From Dehalococcoidia bacterium (GTDB lineage Bacteria > Chloroflexota > Dehalococcoidia > GIF9 > UBA5629), in assembly GCA_050011565.1 (NCBI GenBank), contig JBEKIW010000002.1:128001-192000 (forward strand): a DNA stretch of 64,000 nt, written 5' to 3'. The notes under the pieces were generated by a model. That model saw only the letters and a list, made by a program, of their open reading frames with translations. It ran no database searches and was not told the origin of the DNA. Numbering within the stretch: the first letter of the stretch is position 1; every line of letters starts with the position of its first letter. Below, in pieces: positions 32,348-54,131 of the stretch. A program made the translations under genes and the position numbers.

Positions 32348-32390
32348 TATTTCCAAGATTAGGTCACTTGACGGTGGTTTAAGTTCACGG

Positions 32391-32463
32391 TGGGCGATAG
32401 TGGATTTGAACCACTGACCCCCTGCGTGTAAAGCAGGTGCTCTAACCGCTGAGCTAATCGCCC
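32391..32463 (-). tRNA. tRNA-Val(TAC); followed by CCG rather than CCA
   Basis: GGGCGATTAGCTCAGCGGTTAGAGCA CCTGC TT-TAC-AC GCAGG ... GGTTCAAATCC. Confidence 0.96.
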
Positions 32464-32467
32464 AAAA

Positions 32468-32543
32468 TGGTACGCCTGGTGAGATTTGAACCCACGACCT
32501 CAGCCTCCGCAGGGCTGCGCTCTATCCGCTGAGCTACAGGCGC
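32468..32543 (-). tRNA. tRNA-Arg(GCG)
   Basis: GCGCCTGTAGCTCAGCGGATAGAGCG CAGCC CT-GCG-GA GGCTG ... GGTTCAAATC...ACCA. Confidence 0.94.
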
Positions 32544-32546
32544 ATG

Positions 32547-32629
32547 TGCCGAAGGTGGGATTTGAACCCACATATCCTTTCGGATACTACGTCCTGAACG
32601 TAGCGCGTCTGCCATTCCGCCACTTCGGC
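32547..32629 (-). tRNA. tRNA-Leu(CAG)
   Basis: GCCGAAGTGGCGGAATGGCAGACGCG CTACG TT-CAG-GA CGTAG, long variable arm ATCCGAAAGGAT. Confidence 0.96.
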
Positions 32630-32630
32630 G

Positions 32631-32703
32631 TGGGCAGTACTGGATTTGAACCAGTGACCTCTTGCGTGTGAAGCAAGCGCTCTAACCGCTGAGCTAACCG
32701 CCC
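32631..32703 (-). tRNA. tRNA-Val(CAC)
   Basis: GGGCGGTTAGCTCAGCGGTTAGAGCG CTTGC TT-CAC-AC GCAAG ... GGTTCAAATCC. Confidence 0.96.
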
Positions 32704-46503: not shown

Positions 46504-47475
46504 ATTAATTCAGCATTTTCAGCCCGCCTGCTTATTTACATCGGACTGGTACTCCTGTCAGCCAGTTCTATTGTAGCCTGCGGCTTAACGACACCGACTG
46601 CACCGGTTGCTGAACCCAAAACACGGCCGCCGGCTGCCGTGGAAAATCAACAACCGGCTGAGGCATCGCCCTCTGAGGCATCTACTGAAAATGAAGCCGG
46701 ATGGACTCACGTTAAAAGCTTCAACGGTAAAGACAGTCAGACTACGGCTGCGTTTCCTATTTCGGGCACCAAATGGCGCATTATCTGGACGGTAGACGCT
46801 CAAAACCCTCAATATGCCGTTTTTGACATCCTAGTATATCCTAAGGACAATCCAGGCGTGCTTATCGAAAGGATTTCCTATTCAAAAGGCATGTCCGGCG
46901 ACACGGCCTACATTATTGATGAAGGCGGCCGCGATTACTATCTGAAAATTATAGTTGCCAATTTAGCCAACTGGGCTGTAACGGTCGAAGACTATGCAGG
47001 CGAAAGTGCCGCTGAACCCGTTCAAATAACCAGTATCCACTATAAAGGCATGGACTACCTTAGTACTATTGCGAGTAACCGTCTGATAGTTGAATGGGAT
47101 GAATATATAGAAATAAAAAACACGAGCTATTCGCCGCAGAACATAGCCGGTTGGACGCTGAAAAACATAACGAAGGGACAACCCACATTTATTTTCCCAA
47201 TCTTTACACCGTGTTCCTGCAATTATTTGGGAAGCTTGCAAAAATGTGTTGAGGAATGCTATCCGCCGCGCCCGGACACTATAGAGCCGCGTGAGAGCAT
47301 CAGAGTCTACACTGGCGAACCTCAGTGGGAATCCGGGGGCTACTGCTTTTACTACGGGCCAGGTGACATCTGGAATAACGAGACACCTGATACGGCCGTT
47401 TTATATAATGCCGAAGGACAGGAAGTATCTAGAAAAAGCTATGTAATACCTTCTAAAAACAACGCTATTAAATAA
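46504..47475 (+). CDS. Lamin-tail-domain lipoprotein paralog, probable ATT start
   Basis: Frame upstream of 46639 encodes a signal peptide ending IVAC (Cys26 from ATT 46504, as in the paralog); AGGAG 6 nt upstream. Confidence 0.78.
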   Translation: MNSAFSARLLIYIGLVLLSASSIVACGLTTPTAPVAEPKTRPPAAVENQQPAEASPSEASTENEAGWTHVKSFNGKDSQTTAAFPISGTKWRIIWTVDAQNPQYAVFDILVYPKDNPGVLIERISYSKGMSGDTAYIIDEGGRDYYLKIIVANLANWAVTVEDYAGESAAEPVQITSIHYKGMDYLSTIASNRLIVEWDEYIEIKNTSYSPQNIAGWTLKNITKGQPTFIFPIFTPCSCNYLGSLQKCVEECYPPRPDTIEPRESIRVYTGEPQWESGGYCFYYGPGDIWNNETPDTAVLYNAEGQEVSRKSYVIPSKNNAIK

Positions 47476-47663
47476 GTAACCCGGCCAAAACTTATAAGAC
47501 GACGGATAGCCTGAAATACCGCTACAATACAATCTTTAAATTGGCGACTCGACTATTGCTTTCTTTTTAGCATCAGATGTATAATCATAATAATAAAATG
47601 CTGCTACGAACAGCAGGAGTCTCCGGTTTGGAGCAAAAAAGGATAGCAATAGAGAACTGAAAT

Positions 47664-48455
47664 ATGCAACAGAGATGTCCTAATTGCGGTTCACCCGTTA
47701 TACCCGGTCAGCGTTTTTGTGGCGGTTGTGGAGCTCAGTTAAGTCTGTCCTGTCCTCAGTGCCGGATTACGGTCAGCCCCGGTACCAGATTTTGTCCTAA
47801 TTGCGGCACTACGCTGGGCGGTGGACCGACACAGCAGCCGGGATGGGGACAGCCCGGTGGACCGCCTCCACATCAGCCGGGAATGCCACCGCAACAGCCG
47901 GGTATGCCGCCACAGCAGCCGGGAATGCCGCCGCAGCAACCGGGTTGGGGACAGCAGCAAGCCTGGGCTCCGCCGGCACCGAAGAGCCAATCGTCATCAT
48001 CGAGACCATTTCTGGTAATACTGCTAATAGTTCTCGTGATTGGACTTGGCGGGCTTGTCTACTGGCAATTTGGCGATCAGCTCCTAGGGTTTTTTAACTC
48101 TTCCATCGGTGGTGGCAGTTCTACTATTGTCGATACCACAAAACCGGTGATCACGTTTTCTGAGGACCCAACTGTGTCAGTAAAAAGCGCCAGCATCTTC
48201 TGGCATACTGATGAGTTTGCTAGCACGCAGGTTGAATATGGCACTAGTAACACTTACGGCACACTCGAACCTGCCCAGCCAGCAGACGACCCAACTGGCG
48301 GCCAGTCGCTTGGAGTTATTGACCACTCTGTACTTTTAAGTGACCTTCAGCCGACTACTACCTATCATTACAGGGTCAAGTCGAAAGACAAAGCTGGTAA
48401 CGAGGCAATATCCTCCGACGATAGGACTTTTACGACCATTGCAGCTACAGAGTAA
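47664..48455 (+). CDS. Double zinc ribbon + Pro/Gln linker + TM + FN3-like domain protein
   Basis: CPNCG..FCGGCG..CPQC..FCPNCG; TM; YHYRVKSKD.AGN. Confidence 0.85.
   Translation: MQQRCPNCGSPVIPGQRFCGGCGAQLSLSCPQCRITVSPGTRFCPNCGTTLGGGPTQQPGWGQPGGPPPHQPGMPPQQPGMPPQQPGMPPQQPGWGQQQAWAPPAPKSQSSSSRPFLVILLIVLVIGLGGLVYWQFGDQLLGFFNSSIGGGSSTIVDTTKPVITFSEDPTVSVKSASIFWHTDEFASTQVEYGTSNTYGTLEPAQPADDPTGGQSLGVIDHSVLLSDLQPTTTYHYRVKSKDKAGNEAISSDDRTFTTIAATE
47833..47960 (+). repeat. Coding tandem repeat (21-nt, QQPGMPP units)
   Basis: Degenerate CA(A/G/T)CAGCCGGG(A/T)ATGCCNCCN copies. Confidence 0.8.
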
Positions 48456-48648
48456 TAGCTAAATTTCGGCCTACTAAGACCAAGCATAATCCTCGTATGA
48501 ATGAGCCTATACCCGGGTTTGAATTCGAGCTTATCTTTCCCGTCAGCATCTTTTTGATGTTATTCCCGGTCGTTGTTTTATTTTCGTGGCACAAGTTGTA
48601 TAATCGGTAGGTGACCCTGAGGGTCTTAAACTAATGCGGGAGGTTATT

Positions 48649-48981
48649 ATGAAATACATTAGCTTGCTAGCTGCTATTTTTCTTCTAGTCTCGTTTGGAG
48701 GCTGCACGCTGATAAACAGCGCACCACGTCATTCGGCCGACGAGGTAGCCGCTATAGCTAAAAGCTTCAGTCCTACGTGCCAGAAGCTGATACCGCCAGC
48801 TCCCGGAGCACCACACACCTGAGGTTGCGCCGCTCCTCAGTATGAGGAGGTCGCCTCGACTTATACGGCGCAATATCAGGATAATGGAATGTGGACTATA
48901 ACGAAGGCCTGCCCCGTAGACTCCACATATGACCGCAGCTGGTCCTTCAATGATAATACAAATGAATTGATATGGAAATAA
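48649..48981 (+). CDS. Putative selenocysteine-containing lipoprotein (110 aa, U-G-C), TGA at 48820-48822
   Basis: GGAGGT RBS, lipobox FGGC, frame open for 52 codons after TGA to TAA 48979, SECIS-like hairpin downstream. Confidence 0.6.
48825..48873 (+). promoter_or_regulatory. Candidate SECIS element
   Basis: TTGCGCCG/CGGCGCAA lower stem; GAGG-[AGGTCG]-CCTC upper stem-loop. Confidence 0.5.
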
Positions 48982-49020
48982 AGCTTATAGCGAACGATTT
49001 AGAAAGAACTGAGTCTTAAA

Positions 49021-49341
49021 GTGACTGACATTCTGGATGAAGCCCAGGCGTTAGTTCAATGCAAGGCCTGCCCCTGGTATAAGAGCTGCGCCTTACCGGT
49101 GAAGCTAACAGAGGATGACTTAAGAAAACAGCTCGAGTCTTCAATGCCGGGAGCCGCCAACCCGGGTACCTCCCCATACGGCATGCAGCAGTTGTTATCC
49201 GGCCTGGCAGCCGCTGCTGAAAACTCCATTCTGGAAGGCTGTCCGGTATTTATCAGCAGGCTTCGCTCCAGCCCCAAGCTCGCCGAGCAGATAAAAAAGC
49301 TAATGCAAGACTGGTCAAAAGAGACCCAGAGCCAGCCTTAA
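49021..49341 (+). CDS. Hypothetical protein with CxxC-x5-C and a distal CP
   Basis: CKACPWYKSC...EGCPVF. Confidence 0.7.
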   Translation: MTDILDEAQALVQCKACPWYKSCALPVKLTEDDLRKQLESSMPGAANPGTSPYGMQQLLSGLAAAAENSILEGCPVFISRLRSSPKLAEQIKKLMQDWSKETQSQP

Positions 49342-49421
49342 TTATCCGACCGCATTTTTACCTTCACCTGCTGCCTCACTGAATACTATCCTTGCGGAAT
49401 AAACATAGAAGGATAACCTGC

Positions 49422-50540: not shown

Positions 50541-51269
50541 ATGAAAAAATTAATGTTGTACACCGTCATTACCGTAGCTCTGCTACTTATTTCAGTCGCG
50601 GCTTGCAGTCCGCCGGTCAGTCAGCCCGAGCAAGAGTTCTTCAACCGATGTGACCAGATGCGTAAAAATATAGAACAAGCGCAGGCTATCGCTTCAGAGC
50701 TACAGCACTTCGATTGGAAGGAGTTCGCAGCCATCGGTATATTATGCCCGCCGGGCGGAATATGCCCGGTGGGAAACTTGCCTATAGTGGAAAAGGCTTC
50801 AGTGGCTAAAGAGCTTGCAGACCGCGTGGTCCCTTTGCCCGAACGATTGCCATCGCCCGAGACAGCCGAAACCTACTCCGTGCAGTGCGCCAGCTGTTTG
50901 AAATTCACCATAGAGGTCTGTTCAAATAGCCCCTATAATGAATCACAAGCCAGTGCCGCGGGGTCGGAAAATATTACCGCTCAGTGGCAGCAGTTATGTG
51001 GTCAACTCCAATCAGCCTTACAGGGAGCTGAATATCTGGCTTCCAGAGACAAGACCATTGCCGCAGATTACACGTTCCCTCAACTGTTCGCTTATTTCAC
51101 TGCCTCTGAGGAAAAGGTAAAACAGAAGTATCTCGAAAAGTTTATCGCCAAATCTGACGAATACATTAGACTTCATGATGAGCTAATACAAAATATGCAG
51201 CAGGCCAAACAAACCGCATTAGACCTGTCTAACTGGCAATTCAGTCCTCAAGACACCTCAGCGCAATAA
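50541..51269 (+). CDS. Cys-containing hypothetical lipoprotein
   Basis: Lipobox VAAC; CPPGGICP, CASC. Confidence 0.72.
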   Translation: MKKLMLYTVITVALLLISVAACSPPVSQPEQEFFNRCDQMRKNIEQAQAIASELQHFDWKEFAAIGILCPPGGICPVGNLPIVEKASVAKELADRVVPLPERLPSPETAETYSVQCASCLKFTIEVCSNSPYNESQASAAGSENITAQWQQLCGQLQSALQGAEYLASRDKTIAADYTFPQLFAYFTASEEKVKQKYLEKFIAKSDEYIRLHDELIQNMQQAKQTALDLSNWQFSPQDTSAQ

Positions 51270-51342: not shown

Positions 51343-52323
51343 ATGAAACATAAGCATATCCTCAATATTTTTTTACTTTTTAGCCTGGCCGTATTATCGG
51401 CCTGTTCGGTAATCTCCTGTCGCCCGGAACCGCCGTCTATTGTCCTTTTCTCTGCCACTCCTTCAGAAATCAATAGCGGAGCGTCATCGACCTTAAAATG
51501 GGGTGTGAAAGATGCTACCAGCGTGACTATAGACCAGGGTGTAGGCGAAGTTTCCGCCAACGGTTCAAAGGAGCTATCACCCTCTAAAACCACTGCTTAC
51601 ACCCTGACGGCTACTAACGCCGGCGGTACCGTCACCAGGTCGGTAGTCCTTTATGTTACGGAACCACCACCGACACCACCGCCACCAGTAGTTGATACCA
51701 CGCCACCGGTAATCAAAACCGTCTCAACTTCATCTGAAACTGAGACCAGCGCCGTCATAACCTGGACGACAAACGAGCCGGCGAGCAGCGACGTTGAGTA
51801 CGGTAAAGATGCCGACTACGGTTTAACCGCCTCCTCGGCTGAACTGACCACCGACCACAGCCTCACCTTAAGCGACCTCGCGCCTAATACCGCCTATCAC
51901 TTCCGGGTAAAGTCCAGTGATAAAGCCGGTAATCAAGCTTCATCCGCTGACAATATTTTTGTTACAGCACAAGAAAAATCACAGTACTCACTGGCACTTC
52001 TGTCACTGGAATGGGGAAGGAGAACAGAGTCCACGGATATCGGCATGGGGATCAGCCCGGTACAAGGTAAAAAGTATCTCTACATCAAGGGTACATTACA
52101 GAACAAGAGCCAGGCAACCCTGAGGGCAATAATATATACGATGAATTGTTGGAGCGGCAGTACAATTGTAAAATATGAAGTATACGTGTATCGCGGTCCT
52201 GCCTTACCGGGACAGGTTTTTTCATTTAATATAGAAACTGCCGATGACCCCACGGTTGACAATGTGACCATTGATTTCGCCGACTCGGTGGGCAGGGATA
52301 TCGTGGTTACCAAACAACAATAA
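51343..52323 (+). CDS. Ig-like plus FN3-like lipoprotein
   Basis: Lipobox LSAC; TT.YTLTATN.GG; YHFRVKSSD.AGN. Confidence 0.8.
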   Translation: MKHKHILNIFLLFSLAVLSACSVISCRPEPPSIVLFSATPSEINSGASSTLKWGVKDATSVTIDQGVGEVSANGSKELSPSKTTAYTLTATNAGGTVTRSVVLYVTEPPPTPPPPVVDTTPPVIKTVSTSSETETSAVITWTTNEPASSDVEYGKDADYGLTASSAELTTDHSLTLSDLAPNTAYHFRVKSSDKAGNQASSADNIFVTAQEKSQYSLALLSLEWGRRTESTDIGMGISPVQGKKYLYIKGTLQNKSQATLRAIIYTMNCWSGSTIVKYEVYVYRGPALPGQVFSFNIETADDPTVDNVTIDFADSVGRDIVVTKQQ

Positions 52324-52816: not shown

Positions 52817-53956
52817 TTAGGCGAGCAGGCAGCGCGAGATGACCACCCGTTGTACCTGGTTGGTGCCCTCGTAAATCTGCGTTATCTTGGCATCCCGCAT
52901 CATCCTCTCCACCGGATGGTCTTTTATGTAGCCGTAGCCGCCCATAACCTGCACCGCATCGGTGGTCACCTTCATGGCCACGTCGGAAGCGAATGTCTTC
53001 GATATGGCCGACAGATAGGTGAGGTTTGGCACTTTGTTGTCGATAGCCGAAGCCGCCCGGTAGACGATGGCGCGCGCTGCCTCGACCTAAATAGCCATGT
53101 CGGCCAGCATGAACTGTACCGCCTGTAAGCTGGCGATGGGCGCATTGAACTGCACCCTTTCTTTAGCGTACTTGGTCACGTAGTCCAGCGCTCCCTGAGC
53201 TATGCCGGTTGCCTGGGCGCCTATCACCGGCCGGGTTCGGTCGAGCGTCATCATGGCATAGGTGAAGCCTCTGTTTGCCTCACCGAGCCGGTTCTCAACG
53301 GGCACGGGGCAGTTTTCGAAGATAAGCTCGGCTACCTGCGAACCGCGAATCCCCATCTTGTCCTCCATCTTGCCGATGGAAAAGCCGGGCGTTTTTCCGG
53401 GAACGATAAAGGCTGAGATACCGCGCACACCTTTCTCCGGGTCCGTCTTGGCGAAGATGGTATAGGTAATAGCCACGCCGCCGTTGGTAATAAAGCACTT
53501 GCCGCCATTGAGTATATACTTATCTCCCACTTGTTTAGCAGTAGTCTCCATGGCAGCGGCGTCGGAGCCGGCTTTCCGCTCGGTTAGTCCGAAAGCGAAC
53601 ATACCTTCTCCCTTAGCCAGTGGAGTCAGATGCTTAACCTTTTGCTCCGGACTTCCGGCAATTAGTATCGGCTCGGCCGCCAGCCAGCTCGAACCGACTA
53701 TGTTGGAGCAACTGGGGTCGACACGTGACATCTCCTCGGAAAAGATGCAGCAGGTTACCATATCTTTATCAACGCCGCCGCATTCCTTTGGCATATGCAA
53801 ACCGAACAGCTTGTTAGCCTTGAATATTTCGAAAATGTCCCAGGGGAACTCTCCCGTGCGGTCGATTTCCGCGGAGCGCGGCGCTACTTTTTCCTCGGCC
53901 AATTTGCGTATGGTCTGGCGGAACTTCTCCTGCTCCTCTGTCGTTATATATGGCAT
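52817..53956 (-). pseudogene. Acyl-CoA dehydrogenase interrupted by one in-frame TAG (53087-53089)
   Basis: LTE..AGSD, KCFITNG, KMGIRGS; continues in frame [16 protein letters not shown]...[26 protein letters not shown]. Confidence 0.75.
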
Positions 53957-54131
53957 CGGCTTCTCCTTTCTGGAATTTATCATTGTATTTTCTTCTCCCT
54001 CTCCAGTCAATAGCACATAATGTTTACACGGCGATGTTTAGGATAGTACAATAGGGCTTTCCTGGCCGCGCTTTATTTTAGCGCTTAGATATTATTTATC
54101 GTAAACGAGTAACTAATTGGGAGGGTAGGAC

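Follow-up and report, generated by a model that had tools for sequence, protein, structure and literature searches.

A conserved in-frame UGA followed by a covarying hairpin points to a new family of membrane-anchored selenoproteins in Chloroflexota

We analysed a gene at positions 48649..48981 of a 64,000-nucleotide stretch of genomic DNA from a Dehalococcoidia bacterium (contig JBEKIW010000002.1; the window, with features on the plus strand unless stated otherwise), whose reading frame of 110 codons contains an in-frame UGA at codon 58 and ends in TAA. Comparison of its sequence with those of its relatives leads us to propose, with a probability of close to nine in ten, that UGA-58 encodes selenocysteine (Sec) and that the gene is the short, lipoprotein form of a new Chloroflexota family of membrane-anchored, outward-facing selenoproteins. 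The coding sequence around the UGA is conserved, homologs with Cys at this position exist, a covarying hairpin sits at the position of a selenocysteine insertion sequence (SECIS), and the family tracks the Sec machinery across genomes. An initial annotation of the window had predicted a hidden, outward-facing and membrane-anchored selenoprotein of about 110 residues and unrecognised family at this locus, and the checks reported here support that core proposal.

The frame opens with an ATG at 48649, preceded at a distance of 4 nt by a Shine-Dalgarno-like GGAGGT (48639..48644), passes through the TGA at 48820..48822 and continues for 52 sense codons to the TAA at 48979..48981; the next gene starts with a GTG at 49021. 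Translation table 11 splits the region into an open reading frame (ORF) at 48634..48822 (62 aa) and a 30-aa ORF at 48889..48981. The ribosome-binding site, the residues F-G-G-C (16–19), the in-frame TGA and the 52-codon extension are all present as initially described. A predicted signal peptide with a lipobox-like S-F-G-G-C spans 48649..48705, with Cys19 as the predicted lipidated residue 1 of the mature protein. It is followed by the codon of Cys44 (48778..48780), part of an SPxC motif and found in 30 of 30 rows of alignment A2, and by a loop directly 5' of the Sec codon (48795..48819) that is hypervariable in both length and sequence in A2. Beyond the UGA, which we read as U58, lie a vicinal cysteine, Cys60 (48826..48828), whose position is not conserved in A2, and the codon of Cys88 (48910..48912), which belongs to a K-x-C-P motif and is invariant in alignments A2 and A3.

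Six-frame searches of 61 relatives yielded matches from 26 genomes that all belong to the taxonomic family of the window: the window genome itself and 25 of 36 same-family genomes, with none among 24 genomes from four sister families. When 29 loci were extracted and read through, the TGA fell in one alignment column in all 29, with homology on both sides, and C44, U58, W82, K86, C88 and F100 were invariant. A profile census covering 77 genomes from this taxonomic family returned 71 matches in 39 genomes. Sixty-two of these cover the whole domain and 61 contain exactly one TGA, the single other being a distant match (37 bits). A single genome can hold up to three paralogs that share the TGA, which is retained across 15 genera. 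The C-terminal half alone matches a relative at E 2.3e-29. Conservation on both sides of the TGA, which the initial annotation had named as a check, is found in 29 of 29 loci and in 61 of 62 census matches. In a class-level sample of 401 genomes the protein family was confined to 4 genomes, the window genome among them, all from that one taxonomic family.

Metagenomes provide a further view of the locus. Three metagenome loci carry an in-frame stop at the same place, and the loose ends of divergent metagenome contigs read ...GGC-TGA-GG.... Contigs with near-identical DNA come from runs whose labels are peat, freshwater-sediment, sediment and wetland metagenome; no RNA run is among the 21 runs listed for this DNA. 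In contigs from four other runs, belonging to four studies, the loop at 48795–48818 and many downstream positions are variable, and none of the variants listed (40 of 67) falls at 48820–48822 or changes either the TGA or the hairpin that follows it. The loop is a hotspot of strain variation in these independent contigs, with many substitutions and one 3-nt deletion.

To characterise the RNA downstream of the UGA, the 60 nt after each TGA were folded and pairing was scored on a MAFFT alignment (A1). A hairpin of 6–7 bp recurs among the homologs. Counted from the U of the UGA, its start lies at 13 nt in 17 sequences (spacer of 10 nt) and at 16 nt in 12 (spacer of 13 nt). In the window this is CUCCUCA-GUA-UGAGGAG (48833..48849), a 7-bp stem closed by a GUA loop, with a folding energy of -9.9 kcal/mol on its own (z -3.13). 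Pairing is kept in 93.1% of alignment cells, compared with 47–60% when the 3' arm is slid by 1–3 columns; double-sided changes are seen in five of the seven pairs, and the covariation score was reached by 0 of 500 shuffles. The first loop base is an invariant G. As the peptide encoded over the hairpin shifts among homologs (PQYEE, SLYEK, SQYET, LQSAE and others) while pairing stays, the hairpin appears to be constrained at the RNA level. RNAalifold alone recovers only the four central pairs. Bacterial SECIS elements have a characteristic distance from the UGA and a loop that begins with G, and we take the hairpin to fit this expectation. The genome's own selD carries a 7-bp hairpin starting 12 nt from the U of its UGA.

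The element first put forward as the SECIS was a different one, an outer 8-bp stem (48825..48873) that pairs TTGCGCCG (48825–48832) with CGGCGCAA (48866–48873), and the hairpin described above had been mentioned only as a competing structure and a caveat. The comparison reverses these roles. The outer stem is indeed part of the minimum-free-energy fold (-29.2 kcal/mol, z -4.16) and pairs at 8 of 8 positions in the window genome, but at only 3–6 of 8 in the 15 other homolog loci examined, whereas the supposed competitor is the conserved, covarying SECIS-like element. A GGTC at 48849–48852, likened initially to the apical loop of the E. coli element, differs from the latter in lying outside the conserved hairpin and is not conserved among homologs. 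An Rfam scan of 48600–49050 (E <= 10) returned two chance hits to small nucleolar RNAs and no SECIS family. Overall the arrangement resembles canonical bacterial Sec decoding of the fdhF type, with its SelB-bound SECIS, in that a short hairpin with a G-first loop comes after an in-frame UGA, selA, selB, selC and selD are present and the hairpin of the genome's own selD has the same geometry. It differs in the size of the loop, which has only 3 nt (GUA), or 5 nt if the closing pair is lost, and in that a bulged U is not evident.

The genome assembly (2.0 Mb in 8 contigs, 99.2% complete) contains a compact sel cluster on contig C4. The search for sel genes, also named as a check at the outset, found the complete set: selD (46992–47918, minus strand; 395.9 bits), with one in-frame TGA at the classic position; selA (48265–49350, plus strand; 469 bits); selB, a 645-aa frame ending at 51357 whose wing domain scores 76.6 bits; and tRNA-Sec (52855–52951, minus strand), which scores 72.1 bits against a gathering score of 47 and is called tRNA-SeC(tca) by ARAGORN. 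The order along C4 46992–52951 (L041, L043) is selD, selA, selB, a convergent 235-aa paralog of the window gene with zinc-ribbon and transmembrane (TM) segments, two small plus-strand ORFs and tRNA-Sec. Two other ways of reading the UGA were tried and rejected at the level of the genome. Of 875 frames with 300 codons or more, 250 terminate in TGA, which is therefore not generally reassigned, and among 48 tRNAs the only anticodon that reads a stop is that of tRNA-Sec, which leaves no suppressor tRNA.

Within the census of 77 genomes, SelA counted at E <= 1e-10 is present in 39 (the tally at E <= 0.001 is 44, and we treated the five additional hits of 19–25 bits as other pyridoxal-phosphate enzymes). 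A TGA-bearing homolog is present in 38 genomes; 32 of these have SelA, and the six that do not are 62–88% complete. Seven genomes have SelA and no homolog, and 32 have neither. Eighteen genomes of the census lack SelA at a completeness of 90% or more, and no homolog was found in any of them.

We evaluated the residue at the Sec column in a collection of 5.8 billion proteins. Seven hits were of near-equal length, of which one is full-length with Cys at the Sec column (P0002, 68% identical) and the remaining six are truncated precisely at the TGA, those that have a name being called 'hypothetical protein'. An exhaustive profile search recovered 58 proteins at E <= 1e-3. Cys is found at the Sec column in P0002, P0011, P0013 and P0018, all ENA or JGI gene calls, and P0011 is found on 12 contigs of up to 10 kb; these four homologs provide the alternation of Cys and Sec that the initial annotation had asked for. 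More distant hits (P0016, P0023, P0025, P0027, P0031, P0034, P0036, P0037, P0042 and others) form a wider Sec-less superfamily, also undescribed, some members of which have zinc ribbons and several TM helices. They keep the 'PRYTADQVI...SPxC' helix and the 'W-x-V-x-K-x-C ... WYFYEDTG' sheet without the Sec loop. Because the helix motif and the outer Cys pair persist where the Sec loop does not, the comparison suggests that this loop was inserted into a wider superfamily with two cysteines.

The short-form protein has the features of a bacterial lipoprotein. The lipobox S-F-G-G-C19, a site read from sequence alone, is accompanied in the genome by two copies of Lgt and by LspA, and a [GA]-C lipobox is retained in most short-form homologs. 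Measured against the lipobox consensus, the Phe at -3 is unusual. The U-G-C motif originally noted is not a fixed one: as read from the alignment, 28 of 29 sequences have a vicinal Cys, placed at -3, -2, +1, +2 or +5 relative to Sec, with none in L026, and it is C44, U58 and C88 that are invariant. Cys44 is also retained in many of the Sec-less distant homologs.

No family in Pfam or NCBIfam (release 20) matches the domain, which agrees with the initial statement that its family was not a recognised one. An AlphaFold2 model built with 30 sequences (mean predicted local distance difference test, pLDDT, 86.5) has a helix at residues 30–40 after the signal helix and strands at 44–48, 64–68, 71–77, 81–87, 96–101 and 106–109, with Sec58 in a lower-confidence loop joining the first two strands. 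Foldseek against the PDB gave nothing at E <= 0.001. The best VIA-align match was the C-terminal domain of YpeB (Z 6.5, root-mean-square deviation 3.0, 62 residues aligned), followed by the CD1622 lipoprotein (6.0), a designed cystatin fold (5.9), YpmB (5.8) and UipA (5.3), all weak since Z values up to 6.5 are in the range of common arrangements and the meaningful level is about 8. When the Cys homolog P0002 was used for a structure search of the Atlas, PepSY clusters came up at TM 0.44–0.56, which are sub-threshold leads with feature scores of 0.83–0.84, and the A3 profile against PDB sequences gave only chance-level hits to NDUFB10 (E 0.007).

On this basis the predicted fold is at most weakly PepSY-like. 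The model resembles PepSY (PF03413) and cystatin-like rolls in having a helix on a 4–5-stranded antiparallel sheet, a size of about 85 residues and an extracytoplasmic, often membrane-tethered setting, but it has no match to them in sequence, as none of the 29 members matches the relevant Pfam models, PF03413 included, at E <= 1. To our knowledge PepSY domains have no Cys/Sec triad. Comparison with thioredoxin-fold selenoproteins and oxidoreductases (DsbA-, TlpA/ResA- and peroxiredoxin-like) shows a similar mixture. The family is like them in being exported or anchored with Sec beside Cys, and in one Cys-form member the same chain also contains a TlpA-like Redoxin domain. It differs from them in its predicted fold of a helix and an antiparallel sheet, in the lack of CxxU or UxxC in a thioredoxin context and in the variable spacing between Sec and Cys; no Pfam hit of the thioredoxin clan was obtained in the Sec domain.

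Members of the family come in three architectures. Besides short lipoproteins such as the window gene (form a), there are proteins of ~240–260 aa with an N-terminal double zinc ribbon (PF12773, E 4e-10), a hydrophobic helix, a Pro/Thr linker and the Sec domain (form b; six of six examined), and proteins of ~330–350 aa in which a signal peptide or lipobox and the Sec domain are followed by a C-terminal region of ~200 aa (form c). The form b paralog of the window genome lies on the minus strand at C4 ~51358–52065, between selB and tRNA-Sec. This position, ~2 kb from selA, is retained in 13 genomes of two genera, and adjacency to selB was confirmed in both relatives checked. The long paralog beside selB resembles the NCBIfam entry NF049953, 'zinc ribbon-containing (seleno)protein DG', in combining a zinc ribbon with one Sec, but it differs in that its Sec is in a C-terminal extracytoplasmic domain beyond the TM helix. 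Neither the window protein nor the long paralog hits NF049953 (cut-off 130 bits) at E <= 1; the zinc-ribbon gene upstream of the window gene, which has no Sec, touches the ribbon of this model at E 0.43.

The C-terminal region of form c is homologous to a 242-aa lipoprotein encoded at 50541..51269 of the window (five of five examined, from five other genomes, E 1e-16 to 9e-7), which belongs to no known family and which we regard as a probable partner. It is on one contig with a short-form Sec gene in 12 of 13 same-genus genomes. Its model is a long four-helix bundle (pLDDT 87.5), with a CxxC that is nearly invariant in the alignment, and its structural matches are to generic four-helix bundles only (Foldseek best E 2.3e-3, to designed maquettes; VIA-align Z 15.8). 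A second kind of fusion is seen in the Cys-form homolog P0013, which is joined to an AhpC-TSA/Redoxin domain with a CPSC motif (PF00578, E 7e-27).

These observations can be assembled into a model. UGA-58 would be decoded as Sec, with the hairpin at 48833–48849 recruiting SelB that carries Sec-tRNA(Sec) supplied by the genome's selD-selA-selB-tRNA(Sec) cluster. The protein would then be exported and anchored through its lipobox at the outer face of the cytoplasmic membrane. Its mature domain of ~85 residues is predicted to pack a helix against a small antiparallel sheet, placing Sec58 in a flexible, fast-evolving loop and nearly always beside a movable Cys. Cys44 and Cys88 probably form a structural disulfide, because both are conserved in the Sec-less distant homologs. 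Since a vicinal Cys is present in 28 of 29 sequences, P0013 is a Redoxin fusion and the CxxC-lipoprotein fusion is seen in five of five cases, Sec58 and its vicinal Cys may form a redox-active couple: our tentative suggestion, to which we give slightly less than an even chance, is that they form a selenenylsulfide and take part in an extracytoplasmic thiol/selenol-disulfide relay with the CxxC four-helix-bundle lipoprotein encoded 1.5 kb downstream. A much longer shot is that the lipoprotein, the CxxC-bundle-linked and the selB-adjacent zinc-ribbon/TM forms make up a dedicated Sec-dependent surface system in which, in the boldest version, the sel-locus paralog gauges selenium supply. If so, the extracytoplasmic domain of this paralog would be completed only when its UGA is decoded as Sec, and the ratio of truncated to full-length protein would signal Sec-decoding capacity to the cytoplasm through the zinc-ribbon domain.

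Several observations weigh against Sec at UGA-58 or against the function suggested for it. As the genomes are kin, the co-occurrence counts overstate independence and are descriptive rather than a statistical test. The hairpin overlaps conserved codons, and part of its conservation is at the protein level. With respect to function, the fold has no thioredoxin-like site and its structural matches are weak (Z <= 6.5). The main rival to the redox relay is a different role for the same residues, in which Sec58 and the cysteines serve as ligands for a soft metal or metalloid, for example Cu, Ni, Co, Hg or selenium species, and the selenoprotein acts as a surface chaperone, scavenger or sensor. We consider this rather unlikely. 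It would account for three invariant chalcogen residues with a fourth Cys nearby, and the weak PepSY-type matches include the metal-binding UipA (Z 5.3), those of the helical partner include four-helix-bundle copper storage proteins (Z 12.0 and 9.9) among many generic bundles, and the redoxin fusion also weakly matches SCO1/SenC (E 0.0086); the zinc-ribbon paralog within the selenium-utilisation locus of 13 genomes points the same way. However, the structural matches are all within the range of common arrangements, His, Met and Asp ligands are absent from the invariant set (C, U, C, W, K, F and W), and a vicinal Cys that moves from one homolog to another fits a resolving Cys better than a fixed coordination sphere.

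Two further points concern the decoding itself. Trp occupies the Sec column in seven database proteins, namely the representatives of six 50%-identity clusters (P0009, P0010, P0012, P0014, P0015 and P0020) and P0067, the second member of the P0020 cluster, and a real TGG in these forms would weaken the claim that Sec is essential there. Such proteins would be expected if the UGA were read through without Sec, either by a near-cognate tRNA that inserts Trp or to give two products, with the hairpin merely slowing the ribosome, an explanation that we find very improbable. The Trp representatives are singletons on ENA contigs of 545–882 bp, except that the cluster of P0020 adds P0067 (JGI/IMG), and we suspect that on contigs this small code-4 gene calling, which is represented in the collection, rendered a TGA as Trp. 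Their best identity to the genome DNA with which they were compared is no more than 64%, and their source DNA is not among the 3 metagenome and 2 genome loci obtained from single-protein scans with P0009. The initial annotation had held that Trp, Arg or Gly at this codon would mark a simple nonsense mutation; Trp is there in the seven proteins, but no TGG has been seen among the codons read at the DNA level, where TGA stands in 61 of 62 full-domain matches. Wherever code-11 gene calling is trustworthy, as for P0011, the alternative residue is Cys. Moreover, homologs follow SelA and are missing from all 18 near-complete relatives that lack it, the hairpin has the distance and G-first loop that we associate with bacterial SECIS elements, and a start codon after the UGA, as two products would need, is not conserved, M81 varying to I, V and T. 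The second point is that frameshifted copies exist in two relatives, G012 (two 1-nt shifts; L038, C5, 1501–1830) and G007 (one; L054, C7). The shifts fall in the hypervariable loop around the Sec codon, where strains differ, and reflect either decay of these copies or errors in the consensus. They are what might be seen if the window gene were itself a pseudogene, a Cys-containing lipoprotein gene struck by a nonsense mutation. That reading is, in our view, refuted by the pattern of conservation and has a vanishingly small probability: the TGA is kept across 15 genera, the downstream residues W82, K86, C88 and F100 are invariant as under purifying selection, the C-terminal half is sufficient by itself to find a relative (E 2.3e-29), and up to three paralogs with the same TGA coexist within genomes.

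If UGA-58 encodes Sec as we propose, the decoding mechanism is canonical and the novelty is in the family, not in the principle. The family is not in Pfam or NCBIfam release 20; the BSepDB list of 111 families was outside this comparison. It was also not found in the literature searched on selenoproteins of Dehalococcoidia or Chloroflexota, PepSY or lipobox, a search to which two selenoprotein papers by Haft did not belong, and the accessible parts of a 2026 review and of the deep-Sep paper do not mention Chloroflexi or lipoproteins. Mis-annotation of bacterial selenoproteins is systematic, and the near-length database entries illustrate it, all but one Cys homolog being fragments that end at the UGA. 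The family would add a new fold context for Sec that is small, non-thioredoxin and outward-facing, together with an unusually Sec-dominated distribution, up to three paralogs per genome and a paralog inside the locus of the Sec machinery. It would offer a target for studying surface use of selenium in uncultured anaerobic Chloroflexota of peat and sediments, and annotation models for these genomes (NCBIfam, BSepDB) would gain from its inclusion.

The genes around the selenoprotein gene are also conserved in part. The gene at 49021..49341 immediately follows the selenoprotein gene, in the same orientation, in 17 loci (the window and 16 others; two of the loci overlap one contig of G012). Its 106-aa product has no hit in Pfam or NCBIfam and no signal peptide. 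The product has four cysteines, arranged as CxxCx5C with a distant fourth, and may be a small iron-sulfur or zinc protein of the same operon. The upstream neighbour at 47664–48455 encodes a double zinc ribbon, three PGMPPQQ-like repeats, a TM helix and a domain resembling FN3 and the N-terminal domain of purple acid phosphatase. It is conserved beside the selenoprotein gene in most orthologous loci, and its layout of ribbon, TM helix and outside domain is the same as that of the sel-locus paralog. More widely, the window gene is within a block of surface-protein genes (PKD, two LTD, zinc-ribbon-FN3, FN3) that is flanked by genes of anaerobic metabolism.

Two other features of the window were noted. 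An acyl-CoA dehydrogenase ORF on the minus strand at 53087–54016 (309 aa) covers only 62 of 150 positions of the C-terminal domain; because read-through of its TGA adds no length, a frameshift, a truncation or an assembly error is the likely cause. Finally, four tRNA genes, Val(tac), Arg(gcg), Leu(cag) and Val(cac), are tightly clustered on the minus strand at 32389–32703.

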